A program made the position numbers and the translations under genes. DNA of 64,000 bases from an uncultured Pseudomonadota bacterium (GTDB lineage: Bacteria; Pseudomonadota; Alphaproteobacteria; Rs-D84), in the NCBI GenBank assembly GCA_902801125.1, contig CADCGT010000002.1, positions 7,157 to 71,156 of the forward strand, in the 5' to 3' direction. Below, one piece after another: positions 3,022 through 39,120 of the stretch (position 1 is its first letter; every line of letters starts with the position of its first letter). The notes under the pieces are model-generated. The model saw only the letters and a program-made list of their open reading frames with translations, had not been told where the DNA came from and did not search any database.

Positions 3022-3504
3022 ATGAGCAAAAAATTACTTTTCGCCATAATCGCGACAATTTGCACCACCACCGCATTTGCAGATACCAAAACCGTCACCA
3101 CCAAGGATTATGTGGATACCGCGGACGCATTAAAGCAAGATAAAATAGTCGGACATACACAATACCGGCCCGATTCTGTTATAACAGATACCACAAATGA
3201 TGGCGTGCTGGGTAAACGTTTAACTTTGGGTAGTGATCACTGGCTTACCCCCGAGTTTTGGGCAGCTTATTTGGAAGCTGGGTCACTTACGCAAAATCCA
3301 AATGAAGATGTGCAAGAGATGGTAGAAGATGGAGAATTTACTTATGATGATTTGAGAAAATCGTTAGTCCAGGCAAATGTTTTGGAAATCGCATTATCAA
3401 GACTTACTAGCACAATAAATTTGAAACGTATGACCTGTGCGCGGTATGTTGAAAATGCCGCCCAAACGGCCGAAAATTGCCTGCTGTGGAACGTGGTGCA
3501 ATAA
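3022..3504 (+). CDS. Secreted protein, 'KTVTT-YVD / CLLW' family paralog 1
   Basis: Signal peptide MSKKLLFAIIATICTTTAFA, motif DTKTVTTKDYVDTADALKQDK, C-terminal ENCLLWNVVQ. Paralogous to 35438-35986 and 36094-37566. RBS AAGAGGGAA. Confidence 0.7.
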   Translation: MSKKLLFAIIATICTTTAFADTKTVTTKDYVDTADALKQDKIVGHTQYRPDSVITDTTNDGVLGKRLTLGSDHWLTPEFWAAYLEAGSLTQNPNEDVQEMVEDGEFTYDDLRKSLVQANVLEIALSRLTSTINLKRMTCARYVENAAQTAENCLLWNVVQ

Positions 3505-3572
3505 AACGCCGACGAATGTTTTATCATAATACCAAAAACCACCGCTTTTGCGATGGTTTTTATTGTGTGTAT

Positions 3573-3600
3573 TGACAAAAATAAATTTATGTATTATAAT
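3573..3600 (+). promoter_or_regulatory. Near-consensus sigma70 promoter TTGACA-N16-TATAAT
   Basis: TTGACA at 3573-3578 and TATAAT at 3595-3600, directly upstream of the HNH-motif gene. Confidence 0.5.
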
Positions 3601-3622
3601 TTTGTCAAACAAAGGGATTATA

Positions 3623-4669
3623 ATGCGTAAAATGTGTATTTTTTGCGGGCATCGGCCGGTGGACAAGAATAAAGAACATGTTATTCCGCAATGGTTAATA
3701 CGTGAAACCGGTCGGACAAAATCCCCAATTATTGATACACCGGATAAAAAAATTCCGTTCTTGGCGTTTACTATGCCGGCGTGTACGGCGTGCAATGAAC
3801 GGTATTCCAAAATGGAATCCGACGCGCAATCGGTAATGCAGAAAATTTTGGGCGGTATGTCAATAACCGCACCGGAAATCAACACATTGCTTGATTGGTT
3901 TGACAAGGTTCGCGTGGGCCTTTGGCTGGCGAACGCGTATTTGAATCCGCAAAAGTACGATTTTCAACCCAAAATTGCCATAGACACACGTGTCGGCAAA
4001 CTGGACCGCGCATTGGTCGTGGAAAAGATAGATATGCCGGCATCCGACAAGGGAATTTTAATTGAAGGCATTTATTCGCCGATATTCATATATTCTCCGT
4101 CGGTTTTTCAAATGTTGATAAATAATTATTCTTTTACCAGTGCATCGTGTGCAAACCTGGTATCAAACAGGTTGGGTTTCCCGGTTATAAGCAATGTCAC
4201 ATTGGTGTCGGGTGGTCGTACGCATGGTAATTTGTGCCCCGGCCGTGAAAAAGTGACACACCCCGTTATCAAAGATTTTGCACCGTCGGATAACCAGATT
4301 ATTTTATATCAACCGATTTTTTCTCAATTTCAAAAATCGCCACTGTGCCAAACAAAATATGTTCAAAAATACTCTTTGGACCATAATGCAGGTTTGGGCG
4401 GAATATTCTATCAACGCGGTGCAAATTCACCGGTTGTGTATATGTCGGGCGATGATAAAATCCGCCTGAATCCGCGACCATATCCCGATGATGACGCAGA
4501 ATTGGATAAAATATATAAACGTATGTATAACCTGCAAATTGCGGTAAATAATATGCCCATACGTTTCGATACGGGTGATACCGTGGCGGATGCGCAATAC
4601 GCGTTTTTGCGGAAATGTAAATCAGATTTAGTTGCAAATTATGTTAAAGATAATTTTAACGGCCGGTAA
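3623..4669 (+). CDS. HNH-motif nuclease-like protein with a ~300-aa C-terminal extension of unknown function
   Basis: N-terminus CIFCGHRPVDKNKEHVIPQWL (CxxC...EH.IP, HNH-like) and a second CTACN pair. The rest is unrecognised. Single gene with its own promoter. Confidence 0.55.
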   Translation: MRKMCIFCGHRPVDKNKEHVIPQWLIRETGRTKSPIIDTPDKKIPFLAFTMPACTACNERYSKMESDAQSVMQKILGGMSITAPEINTLLDWFDKVRVGLWLANAYLNPQKYDFQPKIAIDTRVGKLDRALVVEKIDMPASDKGILIEGIYSPIFIYSPSVFQMLINNYSFTSASCANLVSNRLGFPVISNVTLVSGGRTHGNLCPGREKVTHPVIKDFAPSDNQIILYQPIFSQFQKSPLCQTKYVQKYSLDHNAGLGGIFYQRGANSPVVYMSGDDKIRLNPRPYPDDDAELDKIYKRMYNLQIAVNNMPIRFDTGDTVADAQYAFLRKCKSDLVANYVKDNFNGR

Positions 4670-5560: not shown

Positions 5561-6565
5561 ATGTCAGATAACAAGATTTATTTGTCGGGGATAAAACCCA
5601 CTGGAACCGTCCATTTGGGCAACTATATTGGTATGCTGAGCCAAATGCGCGATATATCGCACGAACACAAAACGGTTATGTTTATTGCGGATTTGCACGC
5701 GTTGAATATTATGCGCGATGCGAATGCTGTGCGTGAACACACATACGAAATCGCCGCGATTATTATGTCTATGGGTTTTAATATGAACAATGTTTTAATG
5801 TTCCGCCAATCGGATGTGCCGGCCGTGTGCGAATTGTCAACAATGCTGACCAATGTCACGCCCAAGGGTTTAATGGATCGCGCCCATTCGTATAAGGCCG
5901 CGGTTGATAAAAACATCTCCGCCGGAAACGATACGGATTTGGGTGTGAATATGGGACTGTACACATATCCTATTTTGATGGCGGCGGATATATTACTGTA
6001 TAATTCCGATATTGTGCCCGTCGGTGCCGACCAAAAACAACATGTGGAATTTGCGCGTGATATTGCGGGACATTTCAATACAATATACGGCAATGTGTTC
6101 CGGTTGCCCGAACCCCAGATTATGCCAGATGCCGGAATTATACCGGGATTGGATGGCCGGAAAATGAGTAAATCTTATGATAACATCATCCCACTTATGG
6201 CGCCAAGTGCCGAATTGAAAAAGCGTATTATGCGCATAATCACCGACAGCAAAACACCCGACGAATCCAAAGACCCGGATGAATCTACGATATATATGCT
6301 TTATCGTCATTTTGCAACCGCGGCGGAATCGGCCGATTTGGCGGAAAAATTCCGCGCCGGCGGTATGGGATATGGCACGGCGAAGACAATCCTGTTTGAA
6401 AAATTGGATTCTGTGTTATCACCAATGCGGGTCCAATATGAATATTTAATGGCGAATAGCAATGAATTGGACGATGCGTTGTCGAACGGTGCGGAAATCG
6501 CGCGCCGTATCGCGGACAAGACCATGACACGCGTGCGCCATGTAATGTTGGGAACAAAAAAATAA
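5561..6565 (+). CDS. trpS: Tryptophan--tRNA ligase
   Basis: GIKPTGTVHLGNYIG (HIGH-type) and KMSKS. Start at the internal ATG 5561. Confidence 0.95.
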   Translation: MSDNKIYLSGIKPTGTVHLGNYIGMLSQMRDISHEHKTVMFIADLHALNIMRDANAVREHTYEIAAIIMSMGFNMNNVLMFRQSDVPAVCELSTMLTNVTPKGLMDRAHSYKAAVDKNISAGNDTDLGVNMGLYTYPILMAADILLYNSDIVPVGADQKQHVEFARDIAGHFNTIYGNVFRLPEPQIMPDAGIIPGLDGRKMSKSYDNIIPLMAPSAELKKRIMRIITDSKTPDESKDPDESTIYMLYRHFATAAESADLAEKFRAGGMGYGTAKTILFEKLDSVLSPMRVQYEYLMANSNELDDALSNGAEIARRIADKTMTRVRHVMLGTKK

Positions 6566-6586
6566 ATAAAAAACAAGGAGAGAGCA

Positions 6587-7315
6587 ATGAACAACAAAAC
6601 AATTGGAATAATCGCATGCGCGTTGTGCGTGTTGGTGTTGGGGTGGGGCGCGGTAAATCGATTGGCCGAACCACGGACAATAAGTGTGAATGGTGAATGT
6701 TTGACATCCGCGCCAAAGGACAGAACCGCAATCACAATTCGGGTCAGTGTCACGGATAAAAGTGCGGCAAAATCTATGAAGGCGGCATCATCCAAGATTG
6801 CAGAAATCAACAAATACCTTAAAACACTGGATGTCCAGGTTCAAACCAGTGAATTTAATTCATACGAAAAAAATGAATGGAATCCAACAACGCACAAGTC
6901 TGATTTTGTGGGCATTGAAACAAATATCGCACTGGATGTTTCCGCGGCCAGTATTGATACCATTGAAACGGTCTTGACACAATTCGCGGGCCAACCAGAT
7001 GTGTTTGTGACAAACCTGCGTATGTTCACATCAAGCGAAACAATGAAACCGATTCTGGAATCGTGCCTTGGGACGGCGGTTGAAAATGCGCGCGCCCGTG
7101 CGGACGCATTGGCCGCGGGCGTGGGTCGCCGTGCGGGTAAAATGTTAGCGGCATCCTATGGAACGGGCGGTTCATACGATGTGCGCCCAACGGCAAACTT
7201 CCGTATGGCAAAAATGGAAATGGCGGCGGTCGCGGATTCTTATGCCGGTGGCGCAATTACCGGTAAAGATACCGAGGTTTCCGTCACCGTTTCCGCAATA
7301 TTCGAAATAAAATAA
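6587..7315 (+). CDS. SIMPL/DUF541-family periplasmic protein (26-kDa periplasmic immunogenic protein-like)
   Basis: Signal peptide and an 'ISVNGE...' beginning typical of SIMPL proteins. RBS AAGGAGAGAG. Confidence 0.55.
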   Translation: MNNKTIGIIACALCVLVLGWGAVNRLAEPRTISVNGECLTSAPKDRTAITIRVSVTDKSAAKSMKAASSKIAEINKYLKTLDVQVQTSEFNSYEKNEWNPTTHKSDFVGIETNIALDVSAASIDTIETVLTQFAGQPDVFVTNLRMFTSSETMKPILESCLGTAVENARARADALAAGVGRRAGKMLAASYGTGGSYDVRPTANFRMAKMEMAAVADSYAGGAITGKDTEVSVTVSAIFEIK

Positions 7316-36093: not shown

Positions 36094-37566
36094 ATGAAAC
36101 TATCAAAATACGGTTTTAATGTTGCATTGGTTTTATTATTGGTACCGGGAATCGCCCGTGCAGAAAATCCCGACCTTATGACGCTTATCGGCGCCAGCGG
36201 CGAGGCCGACACATATGCGGCACGTGACAACAATGGGGAGGATACGAACGACAACGCATCAACATACGGATTAAGTTCATCCGACCATAATTCATTTGCG
36301 GTTGATTACGGCAACAGCGGTATCGTACGTGGTCATGGCCGTTGCAGCACGCGTGCGGGCGATTCTGGGACGTGGAATAATGACACATACAATGTAATAT
36401 CCGGTAATTTTGTAGATAGCTTAACCGATGAAACGGGCCAAAGCGGTGCACAATATTGCTATTGCCAATTGGACAGTTATACGGCCTCTGGTGGTTCTGC
36501 CCAGGCTTTGTCTGGCCCGTGGGTGTTCCGCAGTGACGACGAGGACGCGGACACTTGCGCGGACGACTGTGCGCTCGACTGTGCGGATGCCCTGATGTTC
36601 GGCGGCGCGGACGGTCTCGCGTTCCGGGCTGCAATGTTTAATGCCTATGCGCCGGCGGGCGGGGCCAGTGGTGGCAGTGCGGTGACGACACAAACCTATG
36701 TTGATAATAAATTGGCGACAAAACAGGCGCGGATTACCACCACCGGCACAAATAAACTTATGACATACGGTGCATCCACGGGCGCGACCCCGGGTTCGCG
36801 TGATATTGTGACCGCGCTTGGCACATCCACCACCGCAACCACTGTGCCAACGGTTGGCCCAATCGTCACGGCCGTAAATAATAAACAAGACGCGGTCAAC
36901 GGCACAGCGGACTATGTTATGACCGGCACCGGCACGGCCGGCACACTCGGTGAAAAACCGGTCTACAGTGCCAGTGCACAATTGTCGACCGCCCTGGTAA
37001 CCGCCCAGACGATAAATACGGCGGCAATGGACGCGGCCAACAGTGAAATGATGTGTCATTCCTATGTTGCCAACGCATCTCAAACCCCGGAGAATTGCCT
37101 GCTGTGGGAAATAAAACAAAGTATTTCTAAACCGTTGCAATCGTATTGGCAAAATCCGTCGACACCATACACAAGTTCTTGTTATCGTAAGGCATATGGT
37201 AATTATACAGAAGGCGGTATAGCACGTAATGATCAGAATGGTAATTGTAGCAGTGCAACTGTATCGTATCTTGGGGCATTGAACAACAAAAGTGGTAAAT
37301 GGGGCACTGTTTTCCCATATGGTGATATAAGCGGTGTAAGTAAATGTGTTAATTATATTGCCAATCCTGGTATTGCGACAGATGAGCAAATTAATTCGCA
37401 GTCTACGGGCGGGGTTTGTTGGTGCAAGATGCAAAATCCGATAGTTTCAAAATGGGCGATCGGCATGAGTTATGGAAATCTTACCAATTGTAATAAGGTA
37501 TGTGCAGGGACGTGCGCCGCACTTCAACCATCGTATAGAGAAGTTATGTACAGCACAATAGAATAA
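36094..37566 (+). CDS. Secreted protein, 'KTVTT-YVD / CLLW' family paralog 3 with extra N- and C-terminal Cys-rich domains
   Basis: Signal peptide MKLSKYGFNVALVLLLVPGIARA. Internal VTTQTYVDNKLATKQARI...PENCLLWEIKQ domain alignable to paralogs 1 and 2. Confidence 0.7.
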   Translation: MKLSKYGFNVALVLLLVPGIARAENPDLMTLIGASGEADTYAARDNNGEDTNDNASTYGLSSSDHNSFAVDYGNSGIVRGHGRCSTRAGDSGTWNNDTYNVISGNFVDSLTDETGQSGAQYCYCQLDSYTASGGSAQALSGPWVFRSDDEDADTCADDCALDCADALMFGGADGLAFRAAMFNAYAPAGGASGGSAVTTQTYVDNKLATKQARITTTGTNKLMTYGASTGATPGSRDIVTALGTSTTATTVPTVGPIVTAVNNKQDAVNGTADYVMTGTGTAGTLGEKPVYSASAQLSTALVTAQTINTAAMDAANSEMMCHSYVANASQTPENCLLWEIKQSISKPLQSYWQNPSTPYTSSCYRKAYGNYTEGGIARNDQNGNCSSATVSYLGALNNKSGKWGTVFPYGDISGVSKCVNYIANPGIATDEQINSQSTGGVCWCKMQNPIVSKWAIGMSYGNLTNCNKVCAGTCAALQPSYREVMYSTIE

Positions 37567-39046: not shown

Positions 39047-39120
39047 TGGTGCGAGTGAAGGGAATCGAACCCTCGTCTAAAGCTTGGGAAGCTTTCGTTC
39101 TACCATTGTACTACACTCGC
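39047..39120 (-). tRNA. tRNA-Gly (anticodon CCC)
   Basis: Minus-strand cloverleaf GCGAGTG-TA-GTAC-AATGGTA-GAAC-G-AAAGC-TTCCCAA-GCTTT-AGAC-GAGGG-TTCGATT-CCCTT-CACTCGC-A-CCA. Closely resembles E. coli glyU. One A.A mismatch in the D-stem. Confidence 0.85.

Follow-up and report, generated by a model that had tools for sequence, protein, structure and literature searches.

The gene described here lies in a 64-kb stretch of DNA, the whole of which is referred to as the window; coordinates are window positions unless a contig is named. Within the window, the gene follows a P-type ATPase gene and a 160-aa open reading frame (ORF) and is itself followed by rpsD, trpS, a SIMPL-family gene, xerC and cysS. 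Between the 160-aa ORF upstream and rpsD downstream it forms a single-gene unit, to which the following features belong:

3572..3600, + strand: sigma-70-type promoter; -35 box TTGACA at 3572-3577, 17-nt spacer, -10 box TATAAT at 3595-3600
3611..3617, + strand: ribosome-binding site AAAGGGA, 5 nt 5′ of the ATG, as read from the sequence
3623..4669, + strand: coding sequence (348 aa) of a stand-alone HNH-like protein with a novel C-terminal region, from the ORF list; ATG at 3623, stop at 4669
3623..3820, + strand: putative N-terminal zinc-finger HNH (His-Me finger) module, aa 1-66, assigned from conservation, a weak HNH_5 match and the predicted fold order
3869..4183, + strand: family-wide conserved core, aa 83-187, from conservation analysis
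4184..4666, + strand: variable C-terminal part, aa 188-348, with a variable beta-hairpin (188-225) and poorly conserved C-terminal helices (291-345)

An earlier reading of the locus, made from its letters and referred to below as the sequence-only reading, had described a single-gene unit between a gene for a secreted protein and rpsD. That description holds; the N-terminus of the 160-aa ORF (3022-3504) resembles a signal peptide by eye, and the ORF has no Pfam match. A weak paralogue of this ORF lies elsewhere in the window (36982-37119, 40% over 50 aa). Its 3′ half and the spacer behind it (3120-3569) are absent from an otherwise near-identical locus in the metagenome-assembled genome (MAG) JAZQCF01 (L013); the stretch immediately 5′ of the promoter is thus variable too. 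On the other side of the gene, a scan of the spacer gave no terminator-like site, and the 157 nt before rpsD show no significant structure (z -1.4). At the gathering threshold, Rfam matches the 64-kb window only at a tRNA gene (39050-39120, minus strand).

A promoter that travels with the gene

The promoter at 3572..3600 matches the sigma-70 consensus at 12 of 12 positions and is the sole such site in the 64-kb window, where 0.07 would be expected by chance. The sequence-only reading had both boxes right but began the promoter at 3573 and gave it a 16-nt spacer, each one nucleotide off. Near-consensus promoters also lie 5′ of most homologues, and of almost all copies in the host clade: at 44 of 73 homologous loci, a match of at least 11/12 ends 21-37 nt before the start codon, as compared with 0.9% of control windows that reach this score. 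The near-consensus promoter travels with the gene. Five relatives (L005 and L010-L013) keep both the promoter and AAAGGGA, their DNA further upstream being otherwise unrelated, and the AAAG core of the ribosome-binding site is kept in six. Homology of the window to each of the five close relatives starts exactly at the -35 box. Because homology between the genomes of the query clade starts at this box, the gene is a self-contained expression unit, and it would be transcribed constitutively from its own strong promoter. The GC content of the gene (0.42-0.44) equals that of its surroundings, and we dropped recent transfer, as judged by composition, on this ground.

The HNH module and the region attached to it

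The N-terminal module has the pattern C5-x2-C8-G9, K15-N16-x-E18-H19-x-x-P22-x-W24-L25, P52-x-C54-x2-C57-N58 and E65. Its key residues (C5, C8, G9, K15, E18, H19, P22, W24, L25, P52, C54, C57, N58 and E65) are invariant or at least 97% conserved in sets of 32, 60 and 148 sequences, of which the 60 have less than 38% mutual identity and the 148 are representatives with only ~30% identity to the query. Specifically, E18, H19 and N58 are invariant in the two smaller sets and conserved at 99%, 100% and 100%, respectively, among the 148 representatives, in which the two CxxC knuckles (C5, C8, C54 and C57) are kept at 97-100%. The C-x2-C...EH.IP motif noted from the letters is thus real, with C5, C8, E18, H19 and P22 all present, and its residues are upheld by their conservation in homologues. 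The same reading had placed further cysteine pairs within an unrecognised C-terminal sequence; the C-terminal sequence does lack a database family, but the pair C54-x2-C57 belongs to the HNH zinc finger, and cysteines beyond the four named are not conserved.

Comparison with known nucleases points to the Pfam family HNH_5 (PF14279), which ranks first in Pfam for 28 of 32 members (E 6.2e-4 at best); the window protein itself scores 13.9 bits (E 0.053), below the gathering cut-off of 27.5. The motif CxxCG ... (K)N.EH.IP ... CxxCN is common to both. The window family differs in having a 30-residue insertion between the two strands and ~280 further residues that are always attached. HNH_5 has been placed in groups 1 and 8 of the His-Me finger superfamily (Jablonska et al. 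2017, PMC5714182), in a paper that also counts McrA among the HNH restriction enzymes. An AlphaFold2 model of the window protein (pLDDT 89.4, pTM 0.89) has the predicted order strand-strand-helix (E17-19, E50-52, H55-76), with a variable beta-hairpin (aa 33-50) between the two HNH strands. A Foldseek search of the model against the PDB returned E>0.4 at best and gave no superposition on a solved HNH domain. Based on the motif, its conservation and the predicted order of strands and helix, we regard the module as a nuclease of the HNH type (His-Me finger). By analogy with the motif, the site would be of a catalytic type in which E18-H19 provide the general base and its acidic partner, N58 is a metal ligand and the four cysteines hold a structural zinc; we infer that this site cuts DNA.

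The rest of the protein has its own pattern of conservation. The core (aa 83-187) contains a helix with W92-x-D94-K95-x-R97-x-G99-x-W101, followed by P116, R123, D128-R129, F155, P159, N167, N173, S175 and G185-x-P187, and conserved motifs also occur within the more variable aa 188-348 (Y229-Q230-P231 and G257-x-G259-G260-x-F262). The polar residues that are invariant family-wide outside the HNH module (W92, D94, K95, R97, R123, D128, R129, N167, N173, S175 and Q230) point to what may be a second conserved functional surface. A second active site of the PD-(D/E)xK type around D128...E134-K135 was considered and rejected, as E134 is not conserved.

The core matches nothing in Pfam, NCBIfam or the PDB, and the whole of the ~280 residues after the HNH module matches nothing in Pfam, NCBIfam, PADLOC or PDB sequences. 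Searches of PDB sequences with the protein and with the family profile returned nothing meaningful, and modified-base reader folds (SRA, PUA, EVE or McrA-N type) could not be recognised in the protein. The ~280 residues, which have no known sequence or structural relative, are rigidly joined to the HNH module in the model (pTM 0.89). In PHROGs, the only match is PHROG 10503 (E 6.6e-5, aa 4-95), to which no function is assigned there. The sequence-only reading had also proposed a comparison with defence-system profiles; this disappointed, as no model in PADLOC-DB v2.0.0 matches the window protein at E<=1, and 60 diverse members gave only scattered single matches (E>=0.0035).

The two parts of the protein belong to one large family. 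Word-indexed searching gave 236 homologues (E<=1e-3), all of them unnamed or called "hypothetical". When 1.84 billion cluster representatives (clusters at 50% identity) were searched exhaustively with a profile, 558 clusters passed E<1e-30 and 761 passed E<1e-10. Of the best 150 representatives, nearly all are ~340-400 aa long and cover the profile over most of its length, which argues that the HNH and C-terminal parts nearly always occur together; no alternative domain architecture was seen among the best-scoring cluster representatives. Where source labels are given (Klebsiella michiganensis, Acinetobacter indicus and Alphaproteobacteria MAGs) they read "hypothetical protein", and our literature searches found no published description of the family.

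Inheritance and allele exchange in the host clade

Relatives are encoded in at least 143 GTDB species representative genomes, and nearly all of the best 80 of these 143 come from gut or rumen Alphaproteobacteria that are uncultured, many of them under the label Candidatus Enterousia. The closest match of the window protein (99%) is in MAG RUG585 (L010). Nearly all of the host-clade sequences come from MAGs, and at least one record title is evidently wrong: contig CAVGNU010000013.1 (L023), titled Bacteroides fragilis, holds the order Ldh-Grx-CvpA-hyp191-gene-U32 at 88-95% identity to Enterousia-like MAGs and is probably mis-binned or mislabelled. In another MAG (JAZNBN01, L017 6001-6929), the homologue matches as two pieces (aa 2-39 and 46-319) with a few bases between them, which suggests a frameshift, a pseudogene or an assembly error. 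One Enterousia-like genome with a 708-kb contig carries a Cas9 gene (HNH, RuvC_III and Cas9_RuvC) ~6 kb downstream of the homologue (L001 15019-17041).

Within the host clade the gene occupies three chromosomal contexts. In most genomes it lies with Grx, CvpA and a small membrane protein (hyp191); in others it follows a TPR/Slam-like gene and precedes ORFs of 254 and 389 aa; and in the query clade it is found in the SmpB/rpsD context. Neither hyp191 nor the 254-aa and 389-aa genes were retained as partners, since the window locus lacks all of them, as does every non-Enterousia context. The 254-aa ORF follows one Enterousia-like paralogue lineage (L004 9080-11013, where it overlaps the gene, and L053, L058, L064, L065, L071, L072, L056, L033 and L035). 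The 389-aa ORF, in which a CxxxCxxC motif looks radical-SAM-like by eye, is often next after it, and the TPR/Slam-like gene lies upstream; this arrangement may be a lineage-specific operon.

At 43 loci the pairwise divergence of the protein correlates with that of CvpA (Spearman 0.68), which indicates that inheritance in the host clade is largely vertical. This observation counts against a role in defence, as divergence that tracks CvpA fits a lineage-specific cellular function equally well. The protein could accordingly serve Candidatus Enterousia-like Alphaproteobacteria as a housekeeping nuclease, with a role in, for instance, recombination, DNA repair or the processing of nucleic acids, and mobile elements would have captured it occasionally in other bacteria. 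Several observations favour such a role: the number of species-level genomes, mostly of the host clade; the conserved neighbourhoods, with Grx-CvpA-hyp191 in most and SmpB/rpsD in the query clade; the rpsD, trpS, xerC and cysS genes beside it in the window; and the strong, presumably constitutive promoter. However, the protein evolves far faster than its neighbours (at a CvpA identity of 75-85%, its own median identity is ~45%), and strains exchange its alleles, as set out below. Its position and orientation within the neighbourhood vary among five arrangements at host-clade loci, and paralogues occur, two of them in one MAG (RGIG2010, L043 and L071) and another in an integron. Moreover, outside the clade the gene is purely accessory cargo of mobile elements, and, on a point that the sequence-only reading had singled out as decisive, the C-terminal region matches no housekeeping family. 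We consider a housekeeping function unlikely; were it correct, the family would define a new nuclease function in a poorly known bacterial clade.

The exchange of alleles is seen when the window is compared with two close relatives. Versus L013 the flanks are 92-100% identical in DNA, and the flanking proteins nearly so (P-type ATPase 99%, RpsD 100%, SIMPL 100%, XerC 97%), whereas the HNH protein is only 72% identical. Along the gene, DNA identity to L013 runs from 89% to 68%, 90% and 58-66%, returning to 93-100% from position 4620 on. The divergent blocks, at 3720-3870 and 4170-4620 (58-68% DNA identity), correspond to aa ~33-82, that is, the hairpin inserted in the HNH module and the first helix, and to aa ~183-332, the variable hairpin and C-terminal helices. 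Versus RUG585 the pattern is reversed, with 97-100% DNA identity in the gene and 74-93% in the flanks. As judged from these alignments, the window is a mosaic, consistent with gene-specific recombination of a kind known at loci under diversifying or balancing selection.

Mobile carriers and proposed function

The surroundings of the gene had earlier been described as a context in which single-gene defence nucleases occur. At the window locus this argument is weak: the gene lies among housekeeping genes, outside any defence island, and in its clade is mostly inherited vertically. Distant members lend the idea more support, as these are found in integrons, prophages and plasmids and next to RM, Abi_C and OLD genes. 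In Alkalilimnicola ehrlichii (L086), the homologue (6010-7101) is one cassette of a chromosomal integron with an IntI-type integrase upstream; the ORFs are bounded by attC sites (GTTAGGC...GCCTAAC, GTTAGAT...ATCTAAC and GTTACAC...GTGTAAC), and the inverse core of each attC agrees with the opening bases of the cassette to which it belongs. Two positions downstream is a cassette with a second, divergent paralogue (L086 7636-8609); where it matches the window protein best, the two share 31% identity. The Pseudomonas sp. GOM6 homologue also forms a cassette (GTTAGAG...CTCTAAC), ~75 nt from a truncated intI remnant.

Prophages carry the gene at several positions. In a Klebsiella P2/186-like prophage (L093) it sits at the prophage edge on the strand of cI and int, 14 nt beyond int; a second P2-like prophage has it between baseplate and tail-completion genes, in opposite orientation, and on a third viral contig an anti-repressor gene and the tape-measure gene flank it. 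The prophage homologue of Klebsiella michiganensis is WP_334261746.1, and the Klebsiella homologue had no blastn match in E. coli genomes. Minor defence hotspots of P2-like prophages, located between int and att and among the tail genes, are described in a 2026 survey (PMC13586616), the general principle of P2 prophage defence hotspots has been set out (PMC9122126), and integron cassettes carry defence genes (bioRxiv 10.1101/2024.07.02.601719). The family uses the same carriers and positions, namely single-ORF attC cassettes, the int-att edge and the tail-gene hotspot. It was not found among the systems named in these three sources, and the word 'HNH' is absent from both PMC papers.

Other members lie in islands or on plasmids. 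One immediately follows a type II RM pair within an integrase/Mob element, one lies after Abi_C and DUF2283 genes in an ICE-like element, one between a resolvase and an OLD-family ATPase-TOPRIM nuclease with a methylase in an integrative element, and one near NERD and WYL genes; eleven plasmids, conjugative or ICE-type plasmids among them, carry relatives as cargo adjoining IS elements or umuDC. At the inspected loci no partner gene is common to the integron, prophage, plasmid and island contexts, and the cassettes hold the ORF alone. A cognate methyltransferase is absent as a constant partner, and the single-ORF cassettes and varied contexts make the candidate nuclease a single polypeptide. 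We conclude that the family is associated with mobile elements and defence islands, an association observed at about ten hand-inspected loci rather than by a statistical score, the window locus itself not being in an island.

Mobile carriage might also reflect selfish behaviour, with the protein acting as a free-standing HNH homing endonuclease or an addiction-type nuclease that spreads by cutting genomes without it. A single-gene HNH protein that sits between conserved phage structural genes in opposite orientation, and that recombines between strains with homology starting exactly at the promoter, would fit such behaviour. However, tblastn with two different queries found no match in 50,697 deposited phage genomes, and both the integron cassettes and the stable inheritance at the same chromosomal locus across many species are at odds with such spread. 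In addition, the protein has no Pfam match to the DNA-binding modules of homing enzymes, and its whole 350-aa architecture is conserved at ~30% identity, which argues for selection on a cellular function. A selfish element therefore seems to us very improbable.

We instead propose, with moderate confidence, that these proteins are probably a new family of single-protein anti-phage or anti-plasmid HNH nucleases, in which the novel C-terminal domain gates or targets cleavage. This proposal rests on the distant members (integron cassettes, P2 hotspots, plasmid cargo, and RM, Abi_C and OLD neighbours), together with the fast evolution and allele swapping of the gene. The HNH site would cleave invading DNA, that of phages and possibly of plasmids, and host DNA would be spared without an immunity or methylase partner. 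A nuclease that is made constitutively, with no methylase, antitoxin or immunity protein, must be either restrained or specific; because host DNA has to be spared, we predict that discrimination comes from the novel C-terminal domain together with the variable hairpin adjacent to the active site. The mechanism that we prefer is direct recognition and cleavage of a non-self feature of DNA (modified bases or a phage-specific structure) in a manner similar to Type IV restriction, and to this we assign about half of the confidence placed in a defence role as a whole. Alternatively, and with about the same confidence, the nuclease might be auto-inhibited and switched on by a phage cue.

The latter would include an abortive-infection nuclease, in which the C-terminal region senses a phage protein or a change in the cell and the HNH site then degrades host and phage DNA alike. 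This is a variant of the defence proposal, so that the confidence given to it overlaps with, and does not add to, that given above. Constitutive expression without an immunity partner, hypervariable and recombining segments of the kind typical of sensor surfaces, the Abi_C neighbour at one locus and the moron positions in prophages all fit such a mechanism, but none of them distinguishes it from direct, restriction-like cleavage. Searches for a known sensor fold in the protein were negative, and the variable block in the HNH module (aa 33-82) fits contacts with a substrate or inhibitor as well as it fits sensing. We regard triggered abortive infection as possible but rather doubtful.

Several known systems provide a frame for the proposal of a defence nuclease. 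E. coli McrA, from the e14 prophage, is a Type IV (modification-dependent) enzyme made of one polypeptide, without a methyltransferase or immunity partner; it combines a zinc-finger HNH module with a separate discrimination domain and is carried by prophages and mobile elements. McrA and the window family are alike in being single polypeptides with an HNH module, a separate domain and mobile carriers. They differ in that the domain order is reversed, the HNH module being N-terminal in the window family, and in that the non-HNH part of the window family is unlike known modified-base readers in both sequence and structure. Septu PtuB and Zorya type II ZorE are HNH effectors of multi-gene defence systems that need partner ATPases or other subunits. 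There too an HNH nuclease is the presumed executioner, but the window family has no conserved partner, and PtuB models gave only isolated matches, at E ~0.007 in 1 of 60 members. We would describe the family as an HNH effector with an accessory domain that is without precedent, and predict a role in defence.

If this role is correct, the gene is a compact immune system of ~1 kb with a new sensor or targeting fold, from a family that spans hundreds of lineages, integrons and P2-like prophages included, and that Pfam, NCBIfam and PADLOC have missed. It would also offer a rare handle on the phage biology of uncultured Candidatus Enterousia-like gut and rumen Alphaproteobacteria. We extend the idea tentatively: the gene could be the founding example of a widespread one-protein immune family that couples an HNH nuclease to a non-self sensor of new fold and that, in these bacteria, is near-core, constitutive and diversified by allele exchange in the manner of restriction specificity subunits, a broader claim that seems to us quite possible though short of probable. 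Because the gene is small and self-contained and has homologues in Klebsiella, Pseudomonas and Vibrio, the hypothesis is directly testable.

The Klebsiella prophage holds a further pair of genes of interest. Its classical GpA-portal hotspot (L093 1315-3531) encodes a 552-aa HIRAN-domain protein and a 182-aa Rv2179c-like (3′-5′ exonuclease-like) protein, which we consider a candidate for another defence pair.
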